Shown here: in pieces, positions 4,828 through 61,963 of the stretch
Layout: every line of letters begins with the position of its first letter
Numbering within the stretch: the first letter of the stretch is position 1
Origin: Sarcophilus harrisii
Lineage: Eukaryota
Reading direction: 5' to 3'
Assembly (NCBI GenBank): GCA_048593225.1
Contig: CM109176.1
Span: 477,563,429 to 477,627,428, forward strand
DNA length: 64,000 nucleotides
Notes under the pieces: generated by a model
The model's input: the letters and a program-made list of their open reading frames with translations, nothing else
Database searches by the model: none
What the model was told of the DNA's origin: nothing
Position numbers and translations under genes: made by a program

Positions 4828-4830
4828 TGA

Positions 4831-4871: not shown

Positions 4872-4872
<1 letters not shown>

Positions 4873-8900: not shown

Positions 8901-10467
8901 GAAGCAGAAATGTCATCATTAGCCAAAGCAATACCAAAACGGCCATTCTTAAAAAGAGGAGAAGGCCTAGCTAGGTTTACTAATGCTAAATCTAAAGTTC
9001 GAAAACCAAAAGAGAATAAATTAATGACTCATCAAAGCATGTCAGAAGAACAGCCAGTATTTAAAGCAGACAGACAACAAATACAGCGGAAAACTGCTCT
9101 TATAAATAAGGAACCAGTTACAGAGATGAAAAAGAGTAATCAAGTCAGAAACAAAACCAGTAATGCAGTTTCTCTGAAGTCAAAAGTACTTAGAAGTAAT
9201 AATGGGAAGAAATTTGATGGACAGCTTAAAGATCAAATGAAATTAGAAAAAAATAATAAGTTAGAACCTAATAAGGAAAATATACCAGAGTGTACAAAAC
9301 CCTTTGAAATAGGTTGCAAAGTCAAAAATAAACCACAATGCATAGAAAAGCCTCTTATTTCTACAGAACTGACCAATCCTGCCTCTGTTTCTAAAAGTTC
9401 TATGGGTCATATTGTAAAAGATTCAGACTTTTCTTTTGAAATTTCATTTCAAAAGAAATTAGACAATTGGGAAAAGGAAAAAGAAAAGGAGAACTTGGAG
9501 TTAGATGAATTTTTGTTCTTGGAACAAGCTGCTGATGAAATATCATTCTCTAGTAATTCCTCATTTGTATTAAAAATCTTAGAAAGAGACCAGCAGATTG
9601 GCAAAGGCCATAGAATGTCTTCTACCCCTGTCAAATCAGGGCAACAAGTAAAAGCAAATATAACAGATGTTGTTATTCCACACAACCAAAATAAGAAATC
9701 AAATCATATTAAACAAGATAAGAATATGTATGAAATAACAAAACATCTTGAATCAAAAGCATCACCTCAAAGTTTGAAAGAACAGATCAGCAAAGTCAGC
9801 AAAAAACCATTTCAAAATATTACTTCTGAGAGTCAAATCAAATGGAATGTAAGTGAGGATGAAGATGATGGGAACAGTGGTGTTAGCAGTGACTTTGAAG
9901 AGCATCTTGATAGTACCATAAAAGCAACAAATGAAGATACTAAAAACTTTTACAGCAGCAGCAGAGAAGATAATCCACAAAAGGGTGATGGTAAAGGACC
10001 TTTCAGAGACTCTAGGAAGGAGGGTAAAAACCGGGATATTGATCTGGATTTGTCAGATAAAGATGACAGTAGTGATGAATCCATCATAGTGGTAAGCATG
10101 AACGATAAAATTCCTAAGGCATCATGTGTAAATATGAATAAAATTGATTTTGATGATGAGAGAACATGGACTGACTTTGAAGAAAATGAAAGTAAAGATG
10201 ATGTACTTGGGAATGAAGATGTTAATGGGCTTCCTTTGATGGACTATTGTAGTAAAACTGAAATATCTAATTTGGACAAAGCAATAAAAAGGAAGGTTGC
10301 ACCCATAAAGAAAGGAGATGATTTGTGTAAATCCAGTAAGAGTATAAGCCCTCCTCCTACTAATGATCTGATGATGAAACTCTTTCCTTCCTTGAAGCCT
10401 AAACCTAGATCAGACCCACACTTAGCATCTGAATCTGAATTAAATAAAAGCCAAGAACAACCACTTG
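8901..10467 (+). CDS. CENPJ: CENPJ large central exon (1567 nt; equivalent of the human ~1.6-kb exon 7); EAEMSSLAKAIPKRPFLKRGEGLARF ... SQEQPLG
   Basis: A 522-codon uninterrupted frame (the ORF track entry 8910-10478 sits inside it). Acceptor tattttttag|GAAGCAG and donor CTTG|GTAAGT. Serine/acidic-rich, low-complexity composition typical of the CPAP central region. Confidence 0.9.
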
Positions 10468-11440
10468 GTAAGTCTTAATATTATCAGAAACTAAAGATTT
10501 ATCAAAATGTCATAAAGCTTAAATTTTTTTTGTGATTTCTATTTAGTAAGATCAGTTATTTGAAACCCTTAGGTTTCCTTTACTGATGTGTCATCAATAA
10601 AACATTTTTTTTGTTTGTATATTCCCATATAAGGTACTGTCCAGGTACCTCCTCACCAAAGATGTACAAGTTGTAATATGGACTCCTGTGGAGTTCACTG
10701 TCCAGGAGGAGACATGGGTGTATATAGATTACTATAGTACAATGTTTGATGTAGTAAAATATCAAGAAAATGCTCCAGGAACATAGTGGGAGGAAGTTTA
10801 GTAGACCTGACCCAAACATTAGTAAAACGGTTTAGAAGATGAGGGAAAGACATGTGGTTTTTAGTTTCCTAATTCCATATGTTATTCATTAATATACAAC
10901 CCAGTGATAGTCTAATGTCTTTCATAAACAATAAATATTCAACTTCCAGTTTTGTCATAAAGGGAAAGTTTAAAGGAATTCTTGTTTATGCACCCTTATT
11001 TCACCAATATTCTCACCCTGGAGTATCAGCAGACCTCTAATTTATCTCTAAAAATTTATGCCTTTATATAGCAAATTTGAGAGATGAGAATGTGTATATG
11101 TGTGTAAGATAGGAGGAACCTGTTTGCCCAAAACATCAAACTGGCAATGTCCATCTCATCTTTAGAATCTGACTGTATGTAACTTTAGTACCCAGCACAG
11201 TGTAGGTGATTTGTGATAGAACTTATAACATTCCAAGGGGCAGTGATATATGGTTCTTTTTATATATAGACCTCAGGTGCTTTCTTTAGAGAAATTAAGC
11301 CTATTTTTAATAATAGAAGCAGATCTTTTAAGTCATTTTAACTCTAAAATGTTTATATATTGTCATCATTTAATAATAGCAAGATTTTACTCTGTTTTCT
11401 GATTACAATTCAGCATTCATATTAATTTGATATGTTGTAG

Positions 11441-17136: not shown

Positions 17137-19084
17137 GTATGAGAGCTCTTTGTAGTAGAGCATACAAGGTATGCAAAGTTATAGAATTGATATTGATAGG
17201 CTAATAATAAAAAATGTCAGTAATACATTGTTATAGAATTTTTGTTATGGATCTACAACAGATTCATTTCTTAATCTCAATAATTTTAACTGTTTTGTAA
17301 GTATGATGTCAAAATTCTCCTAAATGCATGCTAAATGCTATACAACACTTATAAGTAACATCAGTTAGAAATAACAGTGATACTAGAAGATTATTTGAAA
17401 ACAGACATATATTGCACATAATGTTTATATCTTGGCATTTTTAATATTCATTAAGGCAATGATTTTTCATAGTAAAAGATGGTAATAGTTTTTCACTGAC
17501 TATAGTTTCTTTATTCATTAGATTAAGATTAAGAAAAAATTCCTTTCATGTTTATCTACTAACTTGAAATAGATTAGATTTGGGAACATTTTCTTCGCTG
17601 TGTCCTTCAGCCTATAATCTTGACTTCATTGATATTGTTTCTATACAGATGACTCCCAAATCTTGCTGTAGTCTTTCTCTTTAAGTCCAGTGGCACATCT
17701 TCCAATTATCTGTTGGATATTTTAAAATGGATATCCTTTAGGCATCTCAAATTCAATATGTCTCACACTTAAATTTTTCTTTTTCCCAAACCTTTTTGTT
17801 GTTTGCACCACTTTCCCTGAGTCATCATATAGGTTTGCAACCCTGGTGTCATCCTTGACTCTGTTCTTTGTCACTCCATAGATCTCTCGTCAGTCGCCAA
17901 ATCTTACTTCTCCCTCTACAACACTCCTTCTCTTTCTTCATGTAGCCTTAGTTCACAATTTCATTACCTTTTGTCTATTCTAATATAGTATCTTCCTAAT
18001 TGGTCTCCTTGCCTGAAGTGTCTTCTTCCACACAAATATTAAAGGATTTTTTTTTTCCTAATGTACAATTCTGATCATGTTATTTTCTTGCTCAATAAAT
18101 TTTAATAGTTTCTTGTTACTTGTCAGTTCAAATATAAGCACCTCTGTTTAGTTTTTTAGTTTAGTTTTAGTAGGTTTCCAATCTACTCCTAATCTCTTAT
18201 TTCCAGCTTTAGAACATATCGTTGCAGCCTTCTGGCCATTCTGTGTGCTCTTTTCCTGGCTGGTCCCCCATCCCTGGAAATGCTTCTCTGTCTTGCACTT
18301 TGTTTCCTTTGAAACTCTTTACATATGCTGCCTTCATTATAAAAGCCTTTTGATTATCCCACTCATGCCCTTCCCACCATAAAGTCATCATATATGTGCA
18401 TGTACACATATTGTCTTTCCCATTAGAATGTAAGCTCCTTGATAGTAGGACAGGGCTTTTTCTTTTTCTTCTTTTCAGTTCTGAGTGCTTGGCAGAATTG
18501 TCTTCATGTCTTACATATCCCCTTGTCCTTTTATTTCCTGTTGTCACCATCCATACTTAAAGACTTGGCTGTTGCAATAATTTTCTCACTGCTCTGTCCT
18601 GTCCCTTCCCTGTCATCACCTCCTAACTTTAACCTGTTCCCTGATTTTTCTTTCTAAAATAGCCTTTTTTTTTTTTTTTTTTTAAAGAACTACTCTGCTC
18701 AGATCTTAGCTGCCAGCAGGATAAAATTCAAACCCTTTATCCTAGAATTCAGAGCCTTAGCTTCAACTTAAACTTTTATATTTTTATAATGCTTAATGTT
18801 TCTACAGAATCGTGCTTCTCTAGCCAAAGTGATACACTCATTATGTCCTTGAAAATATCTTGTGCTTTGCCTCCCTGGCCCTTTGTTTAAACTCTGTCCT
18901 TTATCTGAAATCTCCCCCTCATTTAATCTGCTGACCAAAGTCTTTCAGTGGACAGACAATTTAAACTTGGTTTATGTTAATCTTTCATAATTTCCCCATC
19001 CAAAATGTGTTATTGTTTCTTCCAAACTCCTTTACCACTGCTGTGTGATATTTAATATATACAAAATTTTTGTATTTATTATTT

Positions 19085-19255
19085 TAAAAAAAAATTTCTT
19101 TTTTTTTTGGCTGAGGCAATTGGGGTTAAGTGATTTACCCAGGGTCACATACCTAGGGAGTCTTAAGTGTCTGAGGCCAGATTTGAACTCAGGTCCTCCA
19201 GACTTCATGGCTGGTGCTCTATCCACTGCACCACCTAGCTGTCCCTGTATTTGTT
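19085..19255 (-). mobile_element. Marsupial tRNA-derived SINE, reverse orientation (poly-T at 5' side)
   Basis: Reverse complement of the same SINE as at 152-316: ...GCTGAGGCAATTGGGGTTAAGTGATTTACCCAGGGTCACATA...GGTGCTCTATCCACTGCACCACCTAGCTG. Confidence 0.85.
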
Positions 19256-27250: not shown

Positions 27251-30200
27251 GTAAGATTATGAAAATTACAATATTTTTAAGTCAGGTATCCCAATCCATC
27301 TGAAGAAAATTAGAGAGCAAATATTTACTTACATCATCTCTCCTCAAAAGATTGCCATAATTTTCAGCAATGGGAAAAGCAAGAGTAGATTAAGATATCT
27401 CTGAGGATAAAGAATTAAGTCATTAATATATATATTATTATAAGAATTATTATTATTCTCCCTATTCAGTTCCTCTTAATGAAAACTGAAACGAGCCTTG
27501 GTGATAGTAAAACAATATGATTGCAATTTAAGAGTGATAAAACAATCTCAGAGTAAGGGGACCTTAGATCTAGTTATATACTATGTATCGATATTATCTC
27601 TAATAAGCAATCATAGAGCCTCTTTTCACATTTCAATATAGGGAGTTTACCACTTAATAAGGTTCCCCCTCCCCCAGCTATGTTGCCAAGCTCCTTTTCC
27701 TTTATTTTTTAATTCGATTTATGATCACTAGTGCTACCCATACAGGATGTCTTTTTCTCCTCTCACCTTTCATATTACTTAAAAATAGGATATGTTACCT
27801 AAATACATAGTATGGAAGGTTCTGCCACATTGGAAAAACTGAGCATGGTCCAGACAATCTGCTTTCTCAAGACTCACTGAGCCAAGTATGTAGCTGTGTG
27901 GTGCCAATAAGTTGCTTCGTTGTTTATATTCTTTGGCCCTAGTACTCTGCAGTAGAAGCACAAAACAGCCTCCAATCCTGGGCAGCTCCCTTCTGCTGCT
28001 TCTTTATAGTATGCAAACAGGTCAGAGGCATTTATTAAGCACCTCCTATGTGCCAGACACTGAATTCGAGAAAACAAAAGAGTCCATATCCTCTGGGATT
28101 TTGAAAGTTGGTATTCTTCAATGTGAAAATACTTTTCTATTTTTTCTTGTGAACCTAAGCTATTCCACTGATCAACTAGTCTATTTCTTAGCCAATACCA
28201 AATTGTTTTGATGACTGCTGCTTTATAATATAATTTTAAATCTGATACAGCTAGGCCACCTTCATTTGATTTTTTTTTTCATTAATTCCGAAAATACTTT
28301 TCTGTAGACTTAACAAGCAAGCATAACCAGTTGGAATAACTGGAATCTTGACAGTCTTACTATATAAAACAGAAGTTGCAAATGAAGAGAAAGAATGACT
28401 TTTGGATTTTTCTTAAGAATAACGGCACTGATTTTATCCTACACCTAAGGAACATAATTTCAACTATCTGGTCATCTTGTTTGGCAGTGTTTATTACTAG
28501 TATTAGAAGACAGATTGGGGTTTATTTGTTACAGATTCTACAGTTCCACAAAAACTCAAAAGAGCCTCCAAAATTGATCATTATATTTTGTGATTTCAAC
28601 ATAAAGTTGGGAAGGATGAGAAACAGACAGGAAAATAGAAATTAAAGAAAAGTAATGTAGTTCAAAGAAAATCCCTCCATTTTTTCTGTGTTTTGATCAA
28701 AGCCTTACAAAGTAAATAAAGTTCTGTGCTGATAATTAATAAGCACTCTCTAAGAGAAGAACTCTGGGTGATGAACATAATTACCAAATATCACAGAAAA
28801 TAAAATTGCCATTTTAACAAACAAGTAATGATTTTTTCATTGCTGATTCAGTTGTGTACAGCGCAGACCACTGAGTAATCATACTAATTCTAGAAGAATA
28901 GAAATGGGGAAAAATACCCATGCAATTGAAATAATTCAATCTAACAATTTTTGGATAATGAAAATTTTATAAGGACAAAATTTTTGTTTTACATAGATGT
29001 TTTACTGCTGTAAATATAACAATACCAGATCAGTCCCAAATGCTTTGATCAGCAGTTGACTGACTTTGCAGATTGAAAGGAATATTATTTTGTATAATAT
29101 TAAGGACGATATAGTAAGATTGAGCATTATCCCAGAAAAAGTAGAAATAAGCAGAGTAGAATCAATTAAAGAAAGTTTGACAAGAGACTACTAAGTTAAA
29201 ATCATCAAAGGATGAAACTAGAACAGATGAAGAATGGGGAAAAAAAAGGCTACAAAGATTTTTATAACAAGCTTTTTTCACCATCAAAAATGGGAAAATT
29301 ACCATATTTTGACAACATAAAAGCCTGGATGTATTTATAGAGGTGGAAATAACACTGAGGAGAAAAAAGACAATAAAAAGAACTGGATTTAAACTAACAT
29401 CCACAGAGATTTATGCTGAAAATGACAAATTAGGATCGAATCACAAGATATATAAGGTGATTCTTCTGAAGGCATGAAAAAAATCTGATTTTTTGGAAGA
29501 CTGTTCAAGTCACTTTCTGAAAGGCCTTTCCTGATCATTTCCCTTACTTTTCTGCTAAAACCTTCCTTTTGAGATCACCTATTTATACTATGTCCTTTAT
29601 GTACATAATTATTGTTTTGTCTTCTTCGGGAAAAATATAAATTTCTTGAGGGCAGTGATTGTTTTTGCCTTTGTGTCCTTAACATAGTGGCACAATAGTT
29701 AAAAGCTAAACAAAACAAAAACACACAATCCCAAACCATTCCACACATCTTGATCATACAAGTATCTACAAAATGAATGAGATTCTGATGTGTGGATTTA
29801 AAAAAAATTTTGGTTTAGTAGGGCAAAAATGCCAACTTAAAAGATCTTTTTCCAAAAAAATTATATTGTATTCATACTTAAAATTCAAGATCCCTTGGAA
29901 AGATATATTTTTAAAAATTAAAAAACATTTAATCCTCTAATTGTCTATATCAGAAAAACATAAAACACATGCTTGCCAGATGTGATGAAACACCAACAAA
30001 GACTCAAATTTTGAAGGATTTCCTTTTGCTGGTAAGGTCTTCCAGATACTGTTTACAGATTAATGACTGCATGAAATCTTGGATCACAACAGTACTTCCT
30101 AAAAGAAAGTTATAGTCTTTCATGTATTTGGGATAACTATATATCCAGGAAAGACAAAGTGAATTAATAAGGTTTCTTCTTAGCTTTTGTCATGCAGTTG

Positions 30201-33316: not shown

Positions 33317-33457
33317 ATTGAAAAGGTTTTAAAAAGTGGGTGCCATGTTATCTTGTTTCCAAATGGAACCCGGAAAGAAGTGAGTTCAGATGGAAAAACT
33401 ACCACTATTACTTTTTTCAATGGAGATGTGAAAAAAGTCATGCCAGATGGAAGAGTG
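33317..33457 (+). CDS. CENPJ: CENPJ G-box/TCP10 C-terminal domain exon; [47 protein letters not shown]
   Basis: Acceptor (T)n ag|ATT and donor GTG|GTATGT. Matches the human CPAP G-box motif strongly ([44 protein letters not shown]). Confidence 0.9.
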
Positions 33458-33587
33458 GTATGTTTCCATATATATTTTCTACCCCTTTATGTTTCACATA
33501 CACACACACAGATAGTTTTTGTATAGAACTATATATGTATATGTGTTGTACATTCCCCCCCCCACACACAATATGAGCAAATCGTAG

Positions 33588-33698
<111 letters not shown>

Positions 33699-33810
33699 TG
33701 ATTTTTTTTTTTTTTTTTGCAATTCCGTCTCTGCTCCTATTTACTCTCCAAAGCAATTCAAAATGAGAATTCAGGTTCATGTCATACAATATACTATATC
33801 TTTAAACCAG

Positions 33811-33931
33811 AAAAGCATTTTCCAGATGGAAGAAAAGAAATCACATTTCCTGACCAGTCCATTAAAAATTTATTTGAAGATGGGAGAGAAGAAAGCATTT
33901 TCCCCGATGGTACCATTGTTCGAGTACAACA
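33811..33931 (+). CDS. CENPJ: CENPJ G-box exon; (E)[39 protein letters not shown](Q)
   Basis: Acceptor tttaaaccag|AA and donor CAACA|GTAAGA. Phase 1 in, phase 2 out. Matches human [40 protein letters not shown]. Confidence 0.85.
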
Positions 33932-34997
33932 GTAAGACTTGCTTAAATCTAACAGTATTTTTAAAATTGCACTCTGGCTTTTCTTACTAATGTCATTTCA
34001 CTCTCATTCAAAAACAAACTTGCACATTTTGTATTCTGAGTGTCAGATATTGATTAGGTCATTAGTTAAGACATACTGCAAATAGATAGCATCTTTACCC
34101 TAATAAATTTAGCACTGGTTAATAATCTAATCAAAAAACTGCATATTTATTAAACTCTTAACATTCAGATATTCTATATAAATAATGCATGAGCAGATGA
34201 TGATAAATTCAAGTCAGTGAATGTTTCCTGACAGCATTATTATTTTAGTTGGATCTCAGGTAGGAATGAATTTAGGAAAGATTTGTGTGTATACTGACAG
34301 GGTAGCCTAACAGCTAGCATGATTAGCATTTGATGAGATAAAGGAAAGGCACTATACAGTTTTGTAGTAGCTATGGACTAGATAGTTGCAGAGATGTGCA
34401 TGAAGACCATGTGCTTGCAGTAATCAAAGCATAAGATTAGAAGGTCTGGACCAAGATGATCAAAACAAAGAAAGGGTCATATTTGAAGAGTCATATTTTT
34501 CCTCCAATTTAAAAAAAAAATAGAATTTATTAATAAGTAGGTACAGAAGATAAAGGTACACAGCAGTTTTATTGAACTCTATGGAACATGAGAGCTTTTG
34601 GTAAAGAAGATAACAGTAAATAAACACAGTTTCTACTATAACATGCTTGGATTTTAGTGTGGCATCAAGCACAGAGGCAAAAGGAGATATAATATTAGGT
34701 TAGAACCCTGAAACATGAGGAAATTAGATGCAAAATCTGTAGAGGGAAGGGAGAACTGAATTTTGACTGCATATGAGGAACATGTGTGTGTGTGTGTGGG
34801 GATTGGGAGTGAGGAGAGTGTGTCTGAGGAACCAACTTGGGGGGGGTTGGGAGTGAGGAGGGAGTATCTATGAGGAACCATCTATTGAAGACAAAGATGG
34901 AGAAAAAATTGGGAGCTAATATTATTGGAGGTAGTGGCACCTCCTACATATAATGGGAAGAGAAACGTTAACTAAATTATTTTTTTTTTTTAAATAG

Positions 34998-35190
34998 AGA
35001 TGGCAACAAAATAATAGAATTTAACAATGGCCAAAGAGAACTTCACACTCCTCAGTTCAAGAGACGAGAATATCCAGATGGGACCATTAAGACTGTATAC
35101 TCTAATGGCCACCAAGAAACAAAGTTTATATCTGGTCGAGTAAGAATTAAAGATAAGGATGGAAATGTTTTGATGGACACCAAGTTGTAG
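34998..35190 (+). CDS. CENPJ: CENPJ terminal coding exon with stop; (Q)[63 protein letters not shown]
   Basis: Acceptor (T)n aaatag|AGA and stop TAG at 35188-35190. Matches the human CPAP C-terminus ...RIRVKDKEGNVLMDTEL*. Confidence 0.9.
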
Positions 35191-39160: not shown

Positions 39161-39300
39161 CTGAAATAGAAAAATCATTAAAACCTATAGCATGTAACGA
39201 TTTAACGCTTTTTAAAAATTAGAATTATGAACAACTCAGATACTTTTGGAGAAAGTAAAAAAGATAATGCCCTTAAAACACTGCTAAATGTTGAATTCAC

Positions 39301-39436
39301 CTGCTTGTTGGCAATTTTTCAGTTGATCCATAGTCAACAAATTGAACCAAGATAGCAAGGGGATCAAATTCTTTGATGGAAAGAATCTTTGCTCGGTACC
39401 ATAAACCATCATTATATTCTGCAAGACAAGGCATTT
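39301..39436 (-). CDS. RNF17: RNF17 coding exon (Tudor core); (E)[44 protein letters not shown](R)
   Basis: Acceptor ttctctctccag|AA and donor AGCAG|GTGAAT. Textbook Tudor core: C.A.Y.DG.WYRA.I......V.FVDYG..E. Confidence 0.9.
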
Positions 39437-42400
39437 CTGGAGAGAGAATAAAAAGGAAAATTATAATATAAACCTAACAAATAAGACCCTTATATTTCTT
39501 TATATTGTTACTGGCTTCTGTCATTTTCAGAAATAAACTGCCCATTTCCCAAAGCCTCTTTAAAGTTTGAACAGTGAATATTCAGGCATAGATAAAAACT
39601 ATGGAAATGATAATGATGACAGCAGCTAACACATAACATTCATTTTAAGGGAGGTAGGTGGGCACTATGTGAGTGCAGCTTTCCTATTCCCATGCATCCT
39701 ACTTTTTCGTTTCTCGAGTATCATAGAAAGTAGCAGTTCCTTGCCTTCTCCACATAGAGGATACACATCTATTTCCATTAGTTCCATTCTCTGGATAGTT
39801 TCTGTGGAGGAGAATGGAATTCTAAGGGCTGGTTGGCTGTCTAAGTTTCGTCTTCCTGGTAAGTTTTATAAACCAAAATTTATGTTGTACTTTGTTTCAT
39901 CAAAACATGATTGTGATATCTTAGTGTGACATTGTTCTTAAAGCAGAACATAAACTCTATGGATCCTACCAAATTGGAAATATTGTGAGAATAGGACAAA
40001 ACTACATGTCACTTTAAGGACCAATCTTAACTATATTCAGAGATAGTAACTTTCAGGCTACCTGCAAGTTGATTAATTTTGGGCAGCTACTCTCAAAAGA
40101 TTGATCTGCCATCAGGAAAAAGAGCATCCCCATACAGATTACATCACGTATCCTTGAAATACTGAAATTCAATGTTTACTAAATCTGGGTTTCCAAGAGA
40201 TTTTTTCATTACACATACATAATTGTAAAATTTAATTTTAATAGTATCTTTCAAAGTTTTTCCCAATGTCACAAATTTAATAGCAAAATAATTATTTCAT
40301 GTAATTTACTGAATATGACTGTTGGGGGGGGGAGGGGGAATCACAGTGCCAAATCTTACACTAACACATTTCTGAGCAAATTTTGTTTCCTCAGGATATT
40401 TAATTGAATAGAATAACTCCACCAATCTCAAACTAAACACATAGATTTTTCACATTTTACCTCTTTATTAATATGTTAATATGGCTAGAGTACTAGACTC
40501 AAGGACAGAAAGATTTGGGTTCCAATACCACTGATTATCACAATCATAGAGGTCCTTTCTCCTCTTTGAACTCCATTTATATTCTTCCCTAAATGAAGAT
40601 GAGAGGATCAGCAGCACCTCTTCAATAATCAAAAATCAATAGCTGGATGGCCCATAATACCTGGCTGGATTCTCTGTGAGGAACTTGGGAGACAACGGGG
40701 ACAAAAAGCAAACAAGGCTAGTGGGGACTAGCACTGGACGGAACTTCTGAATCAATAAAATCACATCTACTGGAGTAATCACTTCACAGTACTGTTTAAA
40801 GGTTCAAATAAGATGATGTACATAATATGTGCTTTATGCACATGGGGCAAAAGTAATTTGTGAGACCAAAGTGGTATCTAAAATATGACTACCTTTTTTC
40901 TATATGTAGTTGAGAGAGTAAGTTAAAGATATTAAAGAACTAGAAAATAAGTGTTAAGGGAACAGAAGTTGGAGTGCGTAAGACTAAGATAGATATTAAA
41001 CATATGAGAGAAGAGACTAACTTGGGAGCTCCACAGATGATGACATCAAGGATCTGGACAGAAGAGTGAACATTATCACCCAGTAATTCCCCTTCTCCTC
41101 AAATTTATAGTCACTAGTTAAAGTTACCTTTTTCCTTTCTACCATTATGGTATCACATGCTGCCTTGAAACATATTTGATTTTACTATGGAAATGGACTG
41201 CTAAGAGAAATTGTAAGGCTTTACCTAGTGAACTTTATACTTGAGAGATTTCTGAATTAGTTTAATTTTAATCCTACTTATCAAGTGGTATGGATTATAC
41301 TTTGGAAGTCTAGAATACATTCTGGTAAACATATATTCCTCCTAATCACAATCGAGTCATATTTGAAGCATTTCCAATTTGAAAGATCCCAGTAAGACTA
41401 TAACCCATTAGCAAAGTTTTCAGGATCATGGATGTTTGCTACCATCTTAAAAGGCATTTGAATAGGACTTTATTGTAGCAGCTTAGTAATGGCCTATAAA
41501 TATCTGATTACTGAGGATCAGCCCAGCAAAGTTCAGAAACTTATCACTAAGTTGGTGTCAGGGTGATTTTTTTTTTTCTTTTTTTGGGTGTGAGAGAGGT
41601 TGCAAAAATAATTTTTGGAAGACTAGTAAGTAAATTGTCAAGAAGATGCAATAAAATTTGTAAAGGCAGCACCCTTGTCAAAGAAATCACAGATCTTTGA
41701 AGTACTGAAGACTTAAAGATTTCTTTTAATAAAGCCTATCATTTTATATGCTAAGCCACTGACAGTTTTGATTTAATTTAATTTTCTATTACCATGTTCT
41801 AGGATTCTAGGACCTTAGTGATAAACACAAGCAAGTTGAAATAATGAAAGTAAATAAAATGAGATCCAACCCAATTATGATCTTTACTTTAATAATTAAA
41901 AGTAATTTCAATTTTTAATCTTATAAATTTTATATATGTATATCATATATTACATAACATTAATTTTATGTTATATAAATTATGAACACAATTTATTTGA
42001 TATTATACATTTATAAATTAAATACACTATAATATTTAATTAATGAAATAAAAATATGATGCCATTGATTTGCTTTGAACCCAGATGCACCTTTTTTTCC
42101 TCCCTCTTAAAAGTGTTTTCTGATAATTTGTATGAATAATAGTAAGAGATACTACTTTCACATTTACTACCTATGGTTCTTCATAGTAGCAAAAATTAAG
42201 CTCAATGAAAAAAGAACCACAATACCTCCGTAAGCCCCCAAAATGAATTCAAATATGTGCAAGTGCTTTGTAAATCTTTAAGTGTTGTGGCAATATTAAA
42301 TTTATAAACACATGACTATAACAAAATATACAAATAAAACTACTAAAATGTAGCTGAACTGAAGATTAAATGCAATTCCTGGAGATGATAAAATATAATT

Positions 42401-50240: not shown

Positions 50241-51900
50241 TTTACAACATTATCCCTTGCACTCAACTTCTGTTCCGATTTTTCCCCTCTCTCCCTCCAC
50301 CCCCTCCCCCAGATGACAAGCAGTCCTATATATATTAACAATATATGTGTGCAGAACCGAACAGTTCTCTTATTGCACAGGAAGAATTGGATTCAGAAGG
50401 TAGAAATAACCCAGGAAGAAAAACAAAAATTCAAACAGTTTACATTCATTTCCCAGTGTTCTTTCTTTGGGTGTAGCTGCTTCTGTCCATCATTGATCAG
50501 TTGAAACCGAGTTAGATCTTCTTTGTTGAAGAAATCCACTTCCCTCAGAATACATCCTCATACAGTATCGTTGTTGAGGTATATAATGATCTCCTGGTTC
50601 TGCTCATTTCACTTAGCATCAGTTCATGTAAGTCTCTCCAAGCCTCTCTGTATTCATCCTGGCAGGCTGATTTTCAAAGAAGCAAAGGAACTAGAGACCC
50701 AACTATTAATGTTAAATGGATTTTGGAGAATGCAAAGGAGTACCAGAAAATTATTTCTGCTTCATTGACTATAGTGAAATCTGTGGCAAATTTTCAAAGA
50801 GATAGGAGTACCACAGCATGCATAATACACACAGACACACGTACACACACACGCGGGTGCATGCTTGCACCAAGAAACAACAGAGGGAACTGAACATGGA
50901 AAGACTGATTAGTATAAAATTGGAAAAGAAGTTCTACAAGGCTGCATATTGTCACCTTATTTATGAAACTTACAGAGTACATTATATGAAATGTCTGGAT
51001 GAATGAATCAAAAATCTGGAATTAGGGCTCCTCGAAAAACAGCCATTTATGTAAGACATGCAGTTGATATCACTCTAATGGCCAAATGTGAAGAGGAATT
51101 AAGAAACCTCTTCAGGAGGATGAAAGAAGAGAGTAGAGTGTAAAAGCTGGTTTAAAGCTTAAAAAATTAAGATTTTGGCAACTGTTCCCACCACTTCTTG
51201 GCAAATAGAGAAGAAATGAAAGCAGTGTTAGATTTCATATATTCTTGGACTCAAAAATCACTGCAGACAGCAATCACAGCCACAAAATTAGAAAATGCTC
51301 ACTCCTTGAAAGGAAAGCTATTGCAAATCTGTAAAGCATACTAAAAAGGAGAGACATCACATTGCTGACAAAAGTCTGTATACTCAAATCTATGGTTTTT
51401 CCAGTAACAAGATATGGTGATTTAGATTATAAAGAAAGCTGTGTGCTGCAGAATCAATGTTTTTGATTTGTGGTGCTAGAGAACATTTGAGAGTCTCAGA
51501 CAGCAAGGCGGTCAAAGCATTCAATATTTAAAGGAATTAATTCAGGGTATTCACTAGAAAGCCAAATTCTGAAGCTGAAGCTTAAATACTTTGGCCACAT
51601 AATAAAAAGACCCTAATGTTAGAAAAAATAGAAAAGGAAATTATGAACATGAACTTTAAGAGTTGCAGGAGAGAGAAGGCCTGTCCATAGAGTCACAAAG
51701 AACTGGCAACAATTGAATGGCTGAACAACAACAACAAAAAGACTGATGGAGGCAGAAAGGTAGGTGATATTGTCACTGGACTATACCATAAACCATCTGA
51801 TCAGAAAAAGAGGAGAAATTAATTTGTGAAGTCACAGAGTCTGGTTTAGAGGCCAGATATCAATGACTGGGATTCATTTGACTTGTCAACTACCACTAAT
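48290..51900 (+). mobile_element. RTE/BovB-family LINE, near full length (~3.1 kb of element) but degenerate; interrupted at 50158-50661 by a nested L1
   Basis: Long collinear similarity to the bovine BovB consensus as recalled, for example …caagatgaag… / ggcaagtttggcctttgagtacaaaatgaagtagggcagggactaatggaa, ctgcatattgtcaccttatttatgaaacttacagagtacattatatgaaa, ctggtttaaagcttaaaaaattaagattttggcaactg, and ggtttttccagtaacaagatatggtg. Frames are broken by stops and an internal (CA)n-associated deletion near 50820-50860. Confidence 0.8.
50158..50661 (-). mobile_element. L1 3'-end fragment (antisense; poly-T and (ATT)n at its 3' side) nested inside the RTE/BovB element, flanked by a 14-bp TSD
   Basis: Target-site duplication GCAGGCTGATTTTC at 50144-50157 and 50662-50675. 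The internal sequence …ctcctggttctgctcatttcacttagcatcagttcatgtaagtctctcc… matches the L1 3' region. Confidence 0.8.
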
Positions 51901-52271: not shown

Positions 52272-53263
52272 TTTTTTTTTTTTTGAATCTTTTTTTTTTT
52301 TAAATTTATAGCCTTTTATTTACATGATATATACATGGGTAATTTTACAGCATTAACAATTGCCAAACCTCTTGTTCCAATTTTTCACCTCTTACCTCCC
52401 CCCCTCCCCTAGATGGCAGGATGACCAGTAGATGTTAAATATATTAAAATATAAATTAGATACACAATAAGTATACCCGACCAAAACGTTATTTTGCTGT
52501 AGAAAAAGAATCAGACTCTGAAATATTGTACAATTAGCTTGTGAAGGAAATCAAAAATGCAGGTGGGCATAAATATAGGGATTGGGAATTCAATGTAATG
52601 GTTTTTAGTCATCTCCCAGAGTTATTTTTCTGGGCATAGCTAGTTCAGTTCATTACTGCTCCATTAGAAATGATTTGGTTGATCTCGTTGCTGAGGATGG
52701 CCTGATCCATCAGAACTGGTCATCATATAGTATTGTTGTTGAAGTATATAATGATCTCCTGGTCCTGCTCATTTCACTCAGCATCAGTTCATGTAAGTCT
52801 CTCCAGGCCTTTTTGAAATTATCCTGTTGGTCATTTCTTACAGAACAGTAATATTCCATAATTTTCATATACCACAATTTATTCAACCATTCTCCAACTG
52901 ATGGACATCCATTCAGTTTCCAGTTTCTAGCCACTACAAAAAGGGCTGCCACAAACATTCGTGCACATACAGGTCCCTTTCCCTTCTTTATAATCTCTTT
53001 GGGATATAATCCCAGTAGTAACACTGCTGGATCAAAGGGTATGCACAGTTTGATAACTTTTTGAGCATAGTTCCAAACTACTCTCCAAAATGGTTGGATT
53101 CGTTCACAACTCCACCAACAATGCATCAATGTCCCAGTTTTCCCGCATCCCCTCCAACAATCATCATTATTTTTTCCTGTCATCTTAGCCAATCTGACAG
53201 GTGTGTAGTGGTATCTTAGAGTTGTCTTAATTTGCATTTCTCTGATTAATAATGACTTGGGAG
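52272..53263 (-). mobile_element. 5'-truncated L1 (3' UTR plus C-terminal ORF2), antisense, with 17-bp TSD
   Basis: TSD TCTCCTTTTCAAATGTT at 52255-52271 and 53264-53280. The 175-aa minus-strand ORF at 52710-53237 (…HCWWSCERIQPFWRVVWNYAQKV…DPAVLLLGLYPKEI…) is the typical L1 ORF2 C-terminus. Poly-T at 52272-52310 is the A-tail. Confidence 0.9.
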
Positions 53264-54539
53264 TCTCCTTTTCAAATGTTGCTGAAGGAAGTCACGTAAT
53301 TTTGCTGCCTGGGTTTGCTGTAAGTCATAGTTATCTAATCCTGGAATAAAGAAGTCTTCCCCTAACTGATTCTCTTTCCCACTCTCCCGAAAGGCTGCCC
53401 CAACCTCTTTTTCAAGCCTCTCAAAGTAACTCTTCCCCATTTGATCAAGGTCCTTGACTCATAATAATAAAAAGGCCATTTGCCATGATCTTTTATAGAG
53501 CAGAAACTCCATTAATTCAAAATCCTTTGATCTTCTTTGCTCTGCCCTTTACTCAAGTTGAAAGGCAGCCTCTTTCCCCACAAAATCAAATCCTTACACG
53601 TAGCCCAAATTCTGTCTAATCCTCTTATCTCTGTCAGACTGTCCCTAAAATAAGTCCTATAATGTATATCATCTTCAATCTCTATTGTTTCTCTCTAATC
53701 TACAAACCTTGTAAAGTTTCTCCATCTTTAAAAAATGTCCACGAGATCCTACCCTCTCAAATTGCTGTTCTAAATCTGTCCTTCCTTTCACAGCTAAATA
53801 CCTAAAAAAGCTGCTGTTATTTCTTGCTTTTCCTTCTCCCTTCTCAACTCTTGGCAATATGGAGTCTGACGTTATTACACACGACTGAAATAATTTTCTA
53901 TAAAATTACTAGTGATTTCTTAATTACCAAATATAATAATTTTTTCTCAATCATCATCATTTTTTAAAAATAATAACTTTTTTTTCTCTAAACATATGCA
54001 TGGATAATTTGACAATATCAACTCTTGCATAGTCTTGTGTTTCAGACTTTCTCCTCTTTCCCCCTGCCCCCTTCCTTAGATGGCAAGCAATTCAATATAT
54101 GTTAAACAAATAATCATCTTCTTAACTTCTCTATAAACTTGACTCTGCTGATTTATTTTTTTTATGGATATTCTCTCCTGTCTTTGTTTTTTAAAAACTG
54201 CTATGATGTAGAAACCATCTCCTTTTCTGGATCATCATCCATTTTCTGCCTTTTAAATGGACATAATGCAACATTTTGTCCGAGATCTGTTTTCATTTCC
54301 CTATATAATCACTTGACTTCATCAACCCCTATGGGATTAATGGTAACATTTCTGCAAATGATTTCCAGGTCTACATATTTATCCCAGTCTCTATCCTTAT
54401 ATACAGTGCCCTGTCATCAACTGACTGTTGAATGTTATGAACTTGCTGTTCCACATGAAATTAAAGTCAGACCCAAAGCACAATTTGGCATCCTCTCCAA
54501 AACTGCCACTTCTGAACTATCCCATTTATGATACCACTA

Positions 54540-54660
54540 TTCTTTTTTTTTTTTTTTTTTGCTGAGACAATTGGGATTAAGTGACTTGCCCAGGGTCACA
54601 CAGCTAGGAAATGTTAAGTGTCTGAGTTCAGGGCTGGTGTTCTAACCACTACACCACCTA
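54540..54660 (-). mobile_element. Marsupial tRNA-derived SINE, reverse orientation
   Basis: (T)20 gctgagacaattgggattaagtgacttgcccagggtcacacagctagg...ggtgttctaaccactacaccacctagcc. Confidence 0.85.
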
Positions 54661-55255
54661 GCCTTTTGATGTTCTCCTTGATTCTTCAAATATCCAACAT
54701 GTCCTACTTATGTAGTCAGTCATTCATTATATTTGCCATTTCTACTTGTTTGAAATTTTATTTGTTCCCCTCTTTTTACTCATGCAGCAGCCTCCCTAGT
54801 TCTGATCGTCATTATTTTGACATTTGGCTATTACACTATTCTTTTTATCATTCAGGTTTGCAAGTTTGGGAAGAGAAGCAATATAAACTGATAGAACAAG
54901 TTGGGAAGGCCCTTCAAAAGAAGGGGAATCACTGAAATTTTCTGGGTAGAGAAGTAATTTGATCAAACATGGGTTTTTACACATATTACCTTGGCGGCAT
55001 TGTGAAGAACCAATGGGAACAGAAAGAAACTAGCAGCAGGGAAAGGCAATCAGGAGACTGCCACAATAGCCAAATGTCAAAATAATAAGGACCAGAACTA
55101 GGGAGGTTGCTGCATGAGTAAAAAGAGGGGAACAAATAAAATTTCGAACAAGTAGAAATGGCAAATATGATGAATGACTGACTACATAAGTAGGCCATGT
55201 TGGATATTTGAAGAATCAAGGAGAACATCAAAAGGCTATCTTGGGGAAAGTAATT
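54661..55255. repeat. Large inverted duplication: arms ~54661-54845 and ~55060-55250 (about 90% identical in reverse complement) separated by a ~215-bp spacer
   Basis: The ORF track shows mirror peptides (54618-54935(+) and 54986-55294(-) both contain LLMFSLILQISNM.YLCSQSFIIFAISTC.KFYLFPSFYSCS). Direct comparison confirms reverse-complement identity of the arms. Confidence 0.8.
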
Positions 55256-55625
55256 AAATATGTTCAGATTGTCCCTAGAAGAAACTAGGAACAATGGTGG
55301 AAGTTGCCAAGAGGGAAATTTAGGTTTGAGATAAATTTTTTTAAATTAATAATTGAAGTATTTTAAAGTGGAATGAATTGTCACAGAGCAAAGTAGGTTC
55401 CACTCTACTGGAAGTATTCAAAAGCAAAGGCTGTCTTACCACATTTGTCAGATCTATGTTATAAAGGGATTTTTTTCCAACTATGAGTTCCATTTCAGGA
55501 TCATCACCTGAAATATCCTTCCAACTATGAAATTTTGTAAAACATAGTTTACTTATTTTAGTTAATATTTATGATTCTGATTTAATTTTGGGATTTCTTT
55601 ATTTAAAAGAAAGTAGCTTGCTTAC

Positions 55626-55751
55626 CTCTTTCAGTATTTCCTCAGAACCTTCAAATGTACAATGTTTATGGTGTGCCATAAAGTAAGAAAGTGACATTCC
55701 ATCAAAATAAAGATGAACAGACAATTTTCCCCATGGATTTTTGGGTAATTC
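55626..55751 (-). CDS. RNF17: RNF17 coding exon; [42 protein letters not shown]
   Basis: Acceptor cttaatag|GAA and donor AAAGAG|GTAAGC. 42 codons, phase 0. Matches recalled human [42 protein letters not shown]. Confidence 0.85.
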
Positions 55752-56487
55752 CTATTAAGTACAATTAAGAAGTAGTTAAATTTCAAAACGGTATTGATTT
55801 AACTTGAAAATTGAGTGTCTATGTTCATTCCACAAAACTACAATTATGCTCCCTAAAAAACAATATGGTTTTGTAAGTCAGAGCACTAAATCACAAGTTT
55901 TTTCCAAAGTATTTTTCTTTACTTATAAAGAGCTATAATGTGTTGTACTATGTGATAATGACAGCTATCATTCATCTAAAAATTAAAAGTAAATAAAATG
56001 CTTTCTTCACAGTAATTCCATGAAACATGTAGTGAGGCATTTTTATCCTCTGTCAAGATGTATACAGAAATGACTTGCTCAGGATCACATCACTATTAAA
56101 TGACAGAGTGAAATTTTCTCATCCTAGTTCCAGAATTGTTTTAATCACACAATGTCTAAAAATGGCATATTTGAGTCTGGAACTCAAAATCCAATTAAGA
56201 AAAGAATACTAAAAATAAATAAGTTAAGGGAAAAAAAAAAAACTATCTGTACACACCTTTGTTAGTAGTCATCTAAAACAACGATGTACTAGACCTCATT
56301 TAGGTTGTAGCTGTCCATTCTGCTAAACACTTCAAGTCTAGAGCATCACTCCTTTCTCTTCCCCCACAAAATGTTCCTAGAGAACTGACGGCTAAGTTGA
56401 TTTTCCAAAGCATTGTTCTGAATACCATTTCCCTATTCAAAAATGGTGCAATGGTTCCCTAAAATCCTTTCTCTGAAAAATTTCCAG

Positions 56488-56520
56488 TTCTACCGCATCT
56501 GTCTGCCAAGAGTTTCCAAT
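56488..56520 (-). pseudogene. Partial duplicate (decoy/pseudo-exon) of the RNF17 exon at 57536-57616. It shares the acceptor and the first 33 nt (IGNSWQTDAVE), then diverges and reaches an in-frame TGA after 27 codons with no usable donor
   Basis: Direct repeat: + strand ~56484-56715 versus ~57580-57815, about 93% identical and including the ttatcccaattag acceptor. Copy 1 on the minus strand reads IGNSWQTDAVELEIFQRKDFREPLHHF*. Confidence 0.6.
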
Positions 56521-57535
56521 CTAATTGGGATAAAAATGTTATCTTCCATGAACAAAAAAGAAAACAGAACAAGAAACTGTCTGATATACAAAAGCCAGAG
56601 AATCATAATGAAATTATGTTCAAAATAAAGTTCCAAAAACCTCACAAAGGTAAATATTATTGCATTTTGGTTTGCACCTATGACCCCACTGTTGTAATGA
56701 ATCCTACAACTTACTATTTACATGTTACCATATTATTATTTCCTAAAATCCAATTCTTGCTCCCACTAAATTCCTTTCATTATTTCTCTACAGAAATATT
56801 CCTTTTTGCCAAATTATATACTGTTTCCAAAACAAGGTTCAGTGAAAATCATATTGTTGTTTCAAGGCAAATAAACTTTTCTACTTTTCCCTCGACATTT
56901 TCTTGTGATGTCCAGGCCTGAAGTCTAAATCTAGAATCACTACTCATTCACAACTCACATCTGCTACTCTCAACTGTTTTTGGTCTTTGCATATACAAGG
57001 CTGTCTCTTTGGAGAAATAAGCCTTTTTTTTTTTTTTTTAAAAAGAACTCTGAAGGTTGCCCCATAGATAGCAACACTCTCATACTGCATGAATGTTTCT
57101 TCTTTTAGTTGAATATGTCTCTTAAAAGCAAAGGATCATGGTCAGAGTTTTAAAGCTGAAAGAACCTTAAAAGTCAGCTAGTCTAACCCTCTTATTTTAA
57201 AGAGAAGGATATTAAAACTCAGAAGGATCAAAAGACTTGCCCAAGATCACAATGGTATTAAATGTGTCTCAGATTTCTAAACAAACTCCTTTAAATCTAA
57301 ATCCCATATTATTTCTGCTCCAGCTTCCTTTGACCAGGCTTAATATTGCTGCATACCACACAAAGTAAAATTAAGTTAAAATTTAGTTACTGAAAACTAA
57401 AATGAAGCTTATAAATATTCTGTGTGCCCTTTAAAAAATTTAGATTTAGATATTAGTTATTCTCTCAAATTAATATTTTTAAGGAATTCTTATGACATAT
57501 CAATACAAATAACTGCTTAAACATTAATGAGTTAC

Positions 57536-57616
57536 CATGTTATGAATTTCTACTTCTCTTTTTGGTAGTAGTTCTTGAAGAAGTTCTACTGCATCTGACT
57601 GCCAAGAGTTTCCAAT
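57536..57616 (-). CDS. RNF17: RNF17 coding exon; [27 protein letters not shown]
   Basis: Acceptor ttatcccaattag|ATT and donor AACATG|GTAACT. 27 codons, phase 0 at both ends. Parallels human [27 protein letters not shown]. Confidence 0.8.
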
Positions 57617-58542
57617 CTAATTGGGATAAAAATATTATCTTCCGTGAACAAAAAAGAAAACAGAAGAAACTGTCTGATATAGAAAAGCCAGAGAATCATA
57701 ATAAAATTATGTTCAAAATAAAGTTCCAAAAACCTCACAAAGGTAAATATTATTGCATTTTGGTTTACATCTGCGATTCCACTGTTGTAATGAATACTAC
57801 AATTTGTTCACAATATATGGTTTTAGAGAGTTGCCCAGGGTCACATACCTACTATGGACAGGGGTGGGATTTCAACTTAGGTTTTCCCGACTCCCATTTT
57901 TTAAAAAAACCTTTGAATCCAGTATTTTATCTATCATACCATAATGCTTCTCTTTTATATTTAAGTTGCAAAGTTCTTCTGTCTGAAATAATCTAAGGTG
58001 ATTTTATTAACTCCTACCTAACACTTTTATGAAACAGATTCTCCTAAAATTGGTCAATTGTATAACAGAAATAATAAGAAACATGTTCAAGCAAATACAA
58101 TTCTATTACGCTGAAACGCAAAAAGGAAAAAAGCACATTAGCAAGCTTAAAACTTCTTCACTTTTTTAACGCCCCCCCCCCAAAATACTTATTCCATGTA
58201 TAATCAAACCCTACACTTAACACTATCAGAAGGATCTTAGCTTCCCTTAAATTAAAACGTGTGCACATGCGCGTGCATGCACACACACGTGGGACATTTT
58301 CCAGGCACAAAAACACAGAATACCAAAAATAAAACAAATCAAAATATAAAATATGAATTCTAGGATTGTTTTTAGTATATTTATTAGTATACTAAAAGTT
58401 AGTATACTTGTTTGTACTATTGAGCATAAGTACTCCTTAGTCCTGGATTATCCTACGTCTTAAACACCGAGTATTGGAGCAATCATAATGGGAAGAATAT
58501 TTAGATTATTACATTTATGATACAACAAATCAATTTACTTAC

Positions 58543-58662
58543 AGGTACAGTATTATATAGCTGACAAGGAATACAAAACTGGGGTCTATCGGCATATAAT
58601 ACAATTGGATAAAGATGACACTGTGGGATCTTCTCAGTATATCCATGGTCTAAATATTGTAC
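58543..58662 (-). CDS. RNF17: RNF17 coding exon (Tudor core continuation); [40 protein letters not shown]
   Basis: Acceptor tttattttatgcag|GTA and perfect donor CCT|GTAAGT. Phase 0 at both ends. Tudor motif F.DYG..E.V....L, parallel to human [40 protein letters not shown]. Confidence 0.85.
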
Positions 58663-59439
58663 CTGCATAAAATAAACTGTATTACAGAATTACTGGTAGA
58701 GGAGTGATTTTTTTATTCCTCAGTGTTCACTAAGAATTATAGCAATCAGCTATATTTGATTTGAAAGAATTTCCAGGAAAAAATAGCCCAACTTTCTCAC
58801 TGTCATGAAAAGGCTATAAATCCATATAAATAACTATGCAAGACAATTGTTGCTTGGCTTTTTATTACTCTATTTGAAATTTCCAAGGAACGGGAGTGGG
58901 GGGGTGGGTCATAACTTCTTTTGTAAAGTATGTCGCCACAAAGTGCTAAACTAAGAACTCTGTGACAATAGAATAGTTACTAAAAATATATTTGTGAAAT
59001 GCTTTAAAGTTAAAGTGACATGATATAGTTTAATAAACACTAAATCGGAAGCCTGGAGTCCTAGGCCCCAGTTTGACACTGATCTGCTGTCTGTCATCAT
59101 GTTACATTTTCTCAGCGGTAAACTGAGGGAGTTAGTATTCATTTTAAGTTTTTTCTACCTCAAAATTTTAATTTTAAATACTTTTGGGGAGATTTCTACC
59201 TCTTGATAATCTCAAAATTAACAAAATCTCATTACATATTATAGGCTCTGTCCAAAGATCGCAAAAGCAAAAAATGAAAATCACCTTCTTCCACTTAATC
59301 TCAACTGAAGGAAAAAAAAAAGATTCACTGTCTAAAAGTATTAATTATTTGAATAAATTAAACTGAATTTAAACATTTGAGTGAGAAAACAAAGTACTTT
59401 AGTTCTAATTACTTTTGTCTCAACTAATATAAAATTTGA

Positions 59440-59830: not shown

Positions 59831-60534
59831 ACTTGTAGAGAAAATACTTGAAGGTACACTGCCATGATGGGGGAAACTTCCTCATTCTAACAGAATCAGG
59901 CCTAGTCCCCATCTCTATCACTAAAATAAAATTCATAATAATTTAATAAAAACTTTAACCGACAGGATTTTAACTCATCTTTGTACTATCTATAAAGATC
60001 TTTAAACACTGCAATAATGTATATGAAAATTATTCCGTTTGTAGATTTGTGTATTTTTTCTGTAAAGCCCTGACAAACTAAAAAATGAAAACAAAACCAA
60101 AACCCCACTTATGAGCCAGTTAAAATACACTGTATTTACTGGCTCAGACTTCAGACAAATGAATGCCCCAAGAAGGAATTAGTTTTAATACTTTTATTCA
60201 TTTCAACCCACTCAAAGCTAAATTCTAAGGGATTGCCTATCTAGTGTGTTTAAACAATGTAAATAATTTCATATTTATACTATGGATAGAACTTTGCTCC
60301 AAGTCATGGAAATAAAGTTTGACTGGCTCTAGGATTAATGAAAAGTTAAAATCATGGGAAAAAAGAAAAGTCCTTTTAAATATAAAGAGTCATCAACTAA
60401 GATTGACTTTCCCATAGTTTATATGCTCAGGAAATTATCTAGTTAAAAAAATATTCTCAAAAGATATTATACAATTTGTCCTTAGGAATGATTGAGTTTA
60501 ACTCTATATGTAGCTAAAGAATAATCAAACTTAC

Positions 60535-60698
60535 CCTGATAGTTCCACCAACAACTTCCATAACTTTACCTCGATACCACACAGTATCTGATCCTCTAAT
60601 TGCACAAGCTTCTCCTTTTTTCCAGCAATATGGCTCCAAAAGACCAAGACACTTAAAATTACTTTGAATTTCATCCATCAATTTTCTAAGTTCAAGTT
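60535..60698 (-). CDS. RNF17: RNF17/TDRD4 coding exon (start of an extended Tudor domain); (x)[54 protein letters not shown]
   Basis: On the minus strand: acceptor ttatgcattcccttag|AA and donor ATCAGG|GTAAGT. The Tudor signature G.AC.A...D..WYR..V is present. Matches the recalled human RNF17 segment ...[40 protein letters not shown]. Confidence 0.8.
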
Positions 60699-61963
60699 CT
60701 AAGGGAATGCATAAAACATAAACCTTAGGAAAATTATTTCACTCTTAATTTTTAAAGCAAATAAAATCATTATTTCCTATTAATTTTATATTAAAATGCC
60801 ATGAAACAGTAACTACACTTTAAAAATCAGTTCTTATACCCTTGGATTTATATTCAATTTGTTCAAACTCTACTAAAGTAGTTTAAATAGGAGCCTTTAT
60901 TATCTATATGCTTATTATATATTTAGAAAACATAATATCAGGTTATATTCAAGTGTTCTGAGGATTTCTCAATCCTATATATCATGATTAAGCACTACTA
61001 AATGCACATAAATATTAGAGTAGTTCAATCTAATGTTGGATCAAGAGTAGCTGAATAAAATATAAGATACACTGCATTTTGTATGAAGGTAAAATGCAGC
61101 ACAATCTTGGGAAAACAGGCATTTAGCAAAATCTTGTTAGATTCAACCAAGTTAACCAAAATTATCCCAAATAGTATTTTCATAATAAACATAAAGTAAC
61201 AATAATGTAATAAAAACCAGTATGGGTAGCTGACAGATGATTTAGCTTTGAAACTAGAATGACATTATCAGTTGGTATCATTATAATTTATCCCCTACAG
61301 AAATCCTATTTTTATATCTCACTACAGCCTGATTGCAACCCCAGATACTTAGGTATGTGTGTAGAGAATAAATTCAGGTAGGGGAAATCTTTTGCAAAAT
61401 GAGAGGACAATCTAAGTATAAGAAATGTTCATCACTAGAAGTTTGGTCATGAGATAAAAAAAAATTATTTAGTCATGTAAACATCAAAAATTTAAAAAAA
61501 ATCAAAAATTAAAAAAATAAAAATAAAAATGACTTCTAAACTTTTGTGGTCTGCTTCTGATTGTTAGCAATTATGGCAGATTATTAGGCATTGGAACATG
61601 CTAAGACAAACAATTTTTAGATAGAATAGAAACACATTTTAACTCTCAACAAAGATCTTTGTCCAACGATTAAGAAGCAGATATACTATTGGAGGAAGTG
61701 AATCATATTAATACTCATATTCTTGTTATAAATGACAAAAAAAAGCCCACAAAATATTTTTTAGCTAAATATTATAAAAATTATCTTCCAGGAGGTTTGA
61801 ATAAAAAAGTTAGTGAAATTTCAGTTGATGTCTAAAGATGAAAGGTGTTTCACAGTACTCTTGTCATATTGCCCTGAAGTGCTCATCATAAGCAAAAACA
61901 AAAATAAATACCACTGAAGATACCTGCAGCTTACAGGGCAATATTTTTACACAGTGAAGCAGG

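Follow-up and report, generated by a model that had tools for sequence, protein, structure and literature searches.

The window, by which we mean the whole 64-kb stretch of DNA that was analysed, contains the convergent 3' ends of two genes, CENPJ/CPAP on the plus strand (1129-35187) and an RNF17-like gene on the minus strand (39300-60738), and the last recognisable exons of the two are only about 4 kb apart. Pieces of plus-strand open reading frame matched the tubulin-binding region of CPAP (Tubulin-bind_CPAP) at 8901-10475 and Tcp10_C repeats at 33317-33523, 33702-33932, and 34972-35187, the last of which closes with a stop. These pieces are exons of CENPJ/CPAP, which end at about 35187. On the minus strand, Pfam Tudor matches were obtained in the exons at 60517-60738 and 39300-39473; the 60517-60738 piece has Tudor-annotated homologues in the protein collection search, and a further conserved block lies at 58535-58667. 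This multi-Tudor gene fits RNF17 or "RNF17-like", and the name is based on the tail-to-tail order of RNF17 and CENPJ, which we take to be the order in the human genome.

The subject of this study is an inverted repeat, whose position in an intron of the minus-strand multi-Tudor gene, convergent with CENPJ, is supported by the exons around it. The original prediction had placed the repeat inside an intron of RNF17. The intron placement was borne out by the minus-strand Tudor exons, and the name of the gene depends on the assumed synteny. Exact look-ups of two window ORFs beside the repeat gave no match, and a scan for bacterial promoters and terminators returned nothing relevant.

The inverted repeat and the adjoining SINE

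A repeat search and self-blastn of the window gave two ungapped arms of 174 nt each, which are 232 nt apart (Table 1). The arms are complementary at 167 of 174 positions (96%; self-blastn E 4e-78), and they differ by seven substitutions (five transitions and two transversions, one of the seven at a CpG) and by 0 indels. Arms of about 190 bp at 54661-54845 and 55060-55250, with about 90% identity and a spacer of about 215 bp, had been described previously from this DNA; the inverted duplication does exist and those limits were near, but the limits, length, identity, and spacing are corrected here to the values just given and those of Table 1. The mirrored peptides on the ORF track had been attributed to the inverted repeat as an artefact, and the ORF translations agree with this. 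When the whole 64-kb window was searched for inverted repeats of at least 60 nt, with at least 75% complementarity and with arms within 3 kb of each other, this pair was the only one found, and self-blastn of the window gave no third copy of the arm sequence. The 102-aa ORF of the arm matched 0 of 1.84e9 protein representatives, which is a weak result because the library is without close relatives. The intron sequence between the arms (54847-55064) was also unmatched elsewhere in the window by self-blastn, and the sequence to the right of the right arm (55239 onward) is non-SINE sequence.

Table 1. Features of the inverted repeat, the SINE, and their junctions (positions in the window)
Feature	Position	Strand	Description
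TSD left copy, CACTATTCTTTTT	54535-54547		Just before the poly-T; ends at the putative first-strand nick TTTTT/A
SINE poly(A) tail (plus-strand poly-T)	54548-54560	-	13 nt, besides 5 T assigned to the TSD; from the sequence and the alignment with two other window copies
Short CORE-SINE body	54561-54662	-	tRNA-like head and truncated CORE; blastn to two window copies
Left arm	54659-54832		New inverted copy of 55065-55238; flanked by the SINE head and by a TSD copy
Junction microhomology TAGC	54659-54662		4 nt in common between the SINE head and the copied segment at its outer end
Orphan nucleotide A	54833		At the putative fold-back junction; in neither the exact TSD nor the repeat
TSD right copy, CACTATTCTTTTT	54834-54846		Directly behind the left arm instead of behind the SINE head
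Original single-copy intron	54847-55064		From the nick site to the copied segment; supplies most of the 232-nt loop
Right arm	55065-55238		Original genomic segment (template/source); outside the TSD-bracketed insertion

A SINE had been noted next to the repeat, and the sequence, self-blastn, and alignment all place a minus-strand SINE directly against the left arm, in the sense orientation relative to the RNF17-like gene. Blastn found two fuller copies of the same family in the window, copy A at 154-292 (plus strand) and copy B at 19108-19246 (minus strand), and the layout of the family is a tRNA-like head, a truncated CORE, and a poly(A) tail. In the three-way alignment, the focal SINE was without the first 6 nt of the head (GGGGCA), so that it starts with GCTAGG, and it carried a 29-nt internal deletion. 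This architecture fits a short marsupial CORE-SINE of the WSINE1 / SINE1_Mdo type, a match made by family description. WSINE1 and SINE1_Mdo have been described as CORE-SINEs of marsupials that are short, end in poly(A), and are believed to depend on L1 for their spread (PMC3403934). Copy A was used as a control. Its 13-nt target-site duplication (TSD), AAGGTGAATAGCA at 142/315, directly abuts the complete head and thus shows the normal insertion of this SINE family.

Target-site duplication and origin of the repeat

At the focal SINE, the two copies of an exact 13-nt direct repeat stand before the poly-T and behind the left arm. Direct repeats of a comparable kind (exact, non-low-complexity, at least 13 nt, spacing 50-1000) numbered only 11 in the 64-kb window, and the TSD of copy A was among them. 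This corresponds to a density of about 1.8e-7 per position-spacing combination, and the chance of such a repeat falling within +/-2 nt of both junctions is about 5e-6. Because the TSD encloses the poly(A) tail, the SINE, and the left arm, all three entered as one unit; its position further means that the left arm is the new copy and that the right arm is the source, which starts 218 bp beyond the nick site. When the insertion unit was removed, the sequence read ...GATAC CACTATTCTTTTT/ATCATTCAGG..., with the right side beginning ATCATTC. The restored site, TTTTT/AT, is an L1-endonuclease site of the TTTT/A type. Under a single event, the empty site is predicted to read ...GATACCACTATTCTTTTTATCATTCAGG..., with 55065-55238 present once.

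The two joints of the left arm are of different kinds. On the outer side, SINE homology and the inverted repeat overlap by the four nucleotides TAGC, and the outer flanks are unrelated straight beyond them. At the inner boundary, the left side reads GGCTATT/A/CACTATTC and the reverse complement of the right side reads GGCTATT/GTGGCAG, while a C precedes the left TSD copy. The homology at the fold-back joint is therefore 0-1 nt plus one orphan base, compared with 4 nt at the SINE/arm joint. The orphan A would be an untemplated base or a later substitution.

We believe that the inverted repeat very probably arose in one step, as a by-product of the insertion of the neighbouring poly(A) SINE by retrotransposition, in which nearby intron DNA was copied backwards. 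A "palindromic rearrangement product" had been offered among the alternatives of the original prediction, and it comes closest to the sequence, in which the 13-nt TSD brackets both the SINE and the left arm. The architecture is read directly from the DNA, and we infer the following order of enzymatic steps. The LINE endonuclease would cut the plus strand just behind 54547, and the nick would prime reverse transcription from the SINE RNA (the 'primary RT end'). A staggered break of the second strand would free the right-hand ('reciprocal') DNA end, whose 5' strand would be resected over at least about 390 nt. The minus-strand 3' overhang, ending in the complement of the TSD, would fold back with 0-1 nt of homology and a loop of 232 nt, and the folded overhang would prime 174 nt of DNA synthesis across 55065-55238. 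The SINE cDNA would then be captured through the GCTA/TAGC microhomology, with removal of a 6-nt cDNA flap, and ligation would join the remodelled reciprocal end to the 'primary RT end', leaving the TSD intact. In a variant with an identical product, the 3' end of the cDNA would switch template onto the plus-strand DNA at 55238; snap-back priming and a cDNA template switch onto DNA cannot be separated by the sequence that they leave.

Read on the plus strand, the left arm has the minus-strand sequence from 55238 to 55065. This polarity means that the copied strand would be the plus strand at 55065-55238, or that the minus-strand 3' tail of the right-hand end copied itself. Pre-mRNA of the RNF17-like gene was rejected as the template of reverse transcription, because it is minus-sense and a plus-sense template is needed. 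The reverse transcriptase could also have jumped from the SINE RNA to a local plus-sense transcript, antisense to RNF17. Such template switching by the L1 reverse transcriptase is an established source of chimeric retrocopies, and it would give the same final sequence; we count it as a sub-variant within our preferred reading and consider it very unlikely, because no plus-strand gene covers the position (CENPJ ends near 35.2 kb), and a source merely 218 bp from the nick points to a DNA mechanism in cis. Two further candidates were rejected. 5' transduction would call for a parent locus with the segment directly ahead of a SINE, and the only other copy in the window, 55065-55238, runs on into non-SINE sequence. 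Twin priming inverts part of the retroelement itself, whereas here unique flanking DNA is inverted and the SINE is collinear.

Several observations stand against a single event. The SINE appears to be more diverged from its two window relatives than the approximately 2% per arm predicts, although the divergence of the SINE is an unreliable clock, being based on three CpG-rich copies of unknown subfamily structure, and gene conversion between the arms could mimic youth. The fold-back junction is without clear microhomology, and the implied loop of 232 nt differs from the small hairpins of published inverted duplications. Nine related Logan loci, retrieved via the Tudor exon, aligned to the window over exons only (77-86% identity, with 81-86% given for the Tudor exon), and none of them reached far enough toward the position of the repeat to show an orthologous or empty site.

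The apparently greater divergence of the SINE would suit two independent events, that is, a normal SINE insertion followed by a break and fold-back repair, or a SINE that landed at the edge of a palindrome. Inverted duplications that have nothing to do with mobile elements are also frequent in human populations, with 277 events of median length 284 bp (PMC12350158). A pre-existing palindrome is excluded, because a normal insertion puts the second TSD copy at the head of the SINE, and here it was found 174 nt further on. A later break would have had to hit within a few nucleotides of the SINE/TSD junction and to spare the whole 13-nt TSD. Two events leave this coincidence of position unexplained, whereas the single-event model predicts it, and we regard two events as unlikely.

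A DNA transposon with long terminal inverted repeats had been another of the earlier alternatives, and the present data speak against it. The element would be non-autonomous and MITE-like, of Tc1/mariner type, with terminal inverted repeats of about 172 bp and inserted at TA. Such elements generally consist of a long inverted repeat around a short interior, and TA is present at both outer ends (54659-60 and 55237-38). However, a palindromic TA that falls within the repeat and also within the SINE microhomology is almost uninformative, and it was the only candidate TSD: inspection of the outer ends by eye for duplications of 2, 3, 4, and 8 bp gave no 8-bp, TTAA, TWA, or 3-bp duplication. If a transposon had inserted into the SINE, the SINE should continue past 55238, and it does not. 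There is no second copy of the arms in the 64 kb, whereas the SINE family has several; the null protein search of the arm ORF, weak as it is, points the same way, and a transposon would give no account of the 13-nt repeat on either side of the SINE plus left arm. We therefore consider a transposon highly improbable.

Some library preparations are known to create artificial palindromes, and a fold-back chimeric read is one example by which the assembly or the library could have produced the repeat. The arms differ by seven substitutions, mostly transitions and one at a CpG, with no indels, and the SINE head and the TSD mark the junctions, which makes an artefact scarcely credible.

Comparison with known systems and age of the duplication

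The proposed by-product formation during SINE retrotransposition has a close counterpart in L1. Studies have shown that some L1 inserts carry an inverted duplication at the reciprocal end of the double-strand break, in a clone with induced expression and in a cancer genome (Mendez-Dorantes et al., bioRxiv 10.1101/2024.12.14.628481, Fig. 4D/E). In the model proposed for L1, the reciprocal end is resected 5' to 3', the 3' overhang anneals to itself and primes, and the product is joined to the primary RT end by ligation while the TSD is kept (bioRxiv 10.1101/2024.12.14.628481). The locus described here agrees with these cases in TPRT at an endonuclease-type site and in the order of the parts: a segment from the reciprocal side lies inverted between the 5' end of the insertion and the breakpoint, its source is retained, and the TSD surrounds the unit. 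The joints of the L1 cases have short microhomology; here it amounts to four nucleotides between SINE and arm, and to 0-1 nt plus one orphan base at the fold-back joint. The differences are that the passenger here is a SINE mobilised in trans instead of L1, that the duplication is germline-fixed and a few Myr old whereas the L1 examples are somatic or experimental, and that the loop is 232 nt instead of a 'small hairpin', with fold-back homology of 0-1 nt instead of 2 nt.

Other systems share single elements of this arrangement. Twin priming (Ostertag & Kazazian 2001) is likewise an inversion during TPRT, with the second 3' overhang as primer and the TSD preserved; however, there the RNA-copied retroelement is inverted, whereas here flanking DNA is inverted, its source is kept, and the SINE is not inverted. 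Snap-back inverted duplications at resected breaks (Yu et al. 2025; Al-Zain et al. 2023, as cited in bioRxiv 10.1101/2024.12.14.628481) also arise from a self-annealed 3' tail that primes, and they also have a short unique spacer. Nucleases or replication induce the breaks in those cases, where many products are large or give rise to dicentrics; in our case, the break would be a TPRT intermediate, and the synthesis would have stopped at 174 nt and been captured by cDNA. Long-TIR MITEs and Tc1-mariner derivatives have long inverted repeats, a short core, and TA at both ends, as found here, but neither the SINE junction nor the 13-nt TSD around SINE and left arm can be reconciled with them, and the repeat has no informative TSD of its own and no evidence of multiple copies from the window or the protein search. 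Inverted Alu pairs in primate introns similarly form long intramolecular dsRNA in a pre-mRNA intron, where ADAR editing is their expected fate; those pairs consist of two repeat insertions, whereas here the arms are unique intron sequence from one event.

In marsupials, a rate of 0.0045 substitutions per site per Myr has been derived from SINEs (PMC3403934). At that rate, the 4.0% divergence of the arms corresponds roughly to 4-5 Myr, and any gene conversion between the arms would lead to too young an age. The duplication is thus germline-fixed and a few Myr old in a marsupial-type genome.

Such by-products of retrotransposition are known but have rarely been documented; in the literature, we found this class described only for L1, in engineered cells or experimental clones and in tumours. 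The present locus is a germline-fixed, SINE-associated case of the recently described L1-driven local rearrangements. It offers a natural example at nucleotide resolution, in which the TSD, the nick site, the microhomology, and the source segment are still readable. It indicates that ends are remodelled in the same way in the germline when the passenger is a SINE, and that the outcome can reach fixation. A long hairpin able to form dsRNA can thus arise within a gene from unique sequence through a single retrotransposition event, and this bears on the origin of ADAR/MDA5 substrates and, potentially, of new hairpin-RNA genes.

The predicted hairpin RNA and other repeats in the window

A long dsRNA stem in the pre-mRNA had been part of the original prediction, and folding supported it: a stem of about 174 bp was predicted on either transcript strand, with 54847-55064 as the loop region in both folds. 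The gene-sense (minus) strand gave -358 kcal/mol (z = -52.9), and the plus strand gave -341 kcal/mol (z = -27.5). The long near-perfect stem is present in the sequence, and expression of the transcript is assumed from the intronic position. A permissive Rfam scan of 53000-57000 returned a single match, the plant family MIR2630 (RF04097) at 54777-55121 on the plus strand (41.1 bits, E 6.7e-6). Its identity as MIR2630 was rejected as a false positive from the long hairpin shape, since the family is a plant one and its gathering score is 144 bits. Long inverted repeats score against hairpin covariance models, as this match shows.

Whatever its origin, the hairpin might now be a source of hairpin RNA or endo-siRNA in germ cells. 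A 174-bp stem with 96% pairing, in the transcript of a germline-expressed gene and with a very strong predicted gene-sense fold, would suit such a role, and the weak score against the long-hairpin plant miRNA model (41 bits, E 7e-6) may be added. That Rfam score, however, is far under the gathering score (41 vs 144) and reflects a generic hairpin shape. All seven of the arm differences are uncompensated, giving five plain mismatches and two G-U pairs in the gene-sense RNA. With 0 of 7 compensated, there is no sign of selection on pairing, although the test of compensatory change is weak for such a recent duplicate. The structure is young, and repair accounts for it as a by-product. Hairpins in introns stay in the nucleus and do not last long, such stems are usually edited by ADAR, and efficient dicing of long dsRNA in mammals is documented mainly in rodent oocytes, which have a special Dicer isoform. 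We consider a present role as an endo-siRNA source highly doubtful on these grounds. Most likely, the present-day stem would have no selected effect, serving as a substrate of A-to-I editing by ADAR and being degraded with the intron. The link between the hairpin and the role of RNF17 in the piRNA pathway appears to be a coincidence of location. That the SINE-made hairpin is processed in germ cells, either into endo-siRNAs or into heavily edited dsRNA, is given a very small probability. If the hairpin is processed, inverted duplication coupled to retrotransposition would be a route to new mammalian hairpin-RNA loci.

Other repeats were observed in the window. About 1.3 kb to the right of the inverted repeat, in the same intron, 56486-56712 and 57582-57805 form a direct duplication with 89-94% identity and a spacing of about 1093-1096 bp; matching ORF peptides suggest that the duplicated block may be larger, roughly 56463-56918 versus 57496-57993. 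A 193-aa open frame on the minus strand at 52713-53291 resembles the cysteine-rich C-terminal region of LINE-1 ORF2 (CWRGCG..HCWW.C), and a similar piece lies at 27877-28278 on the same strand. A Pfam search of three large repeat-derived ORFs, including the one at 52713-53291, gave no relevant match. Read as L1 fragments, the two pieces are consistent with L1 activity in this genome. Two plus-strand ORF fragments, 50516-50890 and 52609-52848, both carry the peptide SYSIVVEVYNDLLVLLISLSISSCKSLQA, which means that the same interspersed repeat occurs twice, about 2 kb apart and in direct orientation. The tail of SINE copy B (19060-19110) is odd, with an A9 run and then TTTC between the TSD and the poly-T (...attattttAAAAAAAAATTTCtttttttttt...), which suggests that its 3' junction may be composite or rearranged. 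A (TG/CA)n microsatellite lies at about 4824-4994, where it appears as VCVCVC and THTHTH runs in the ORF translations.
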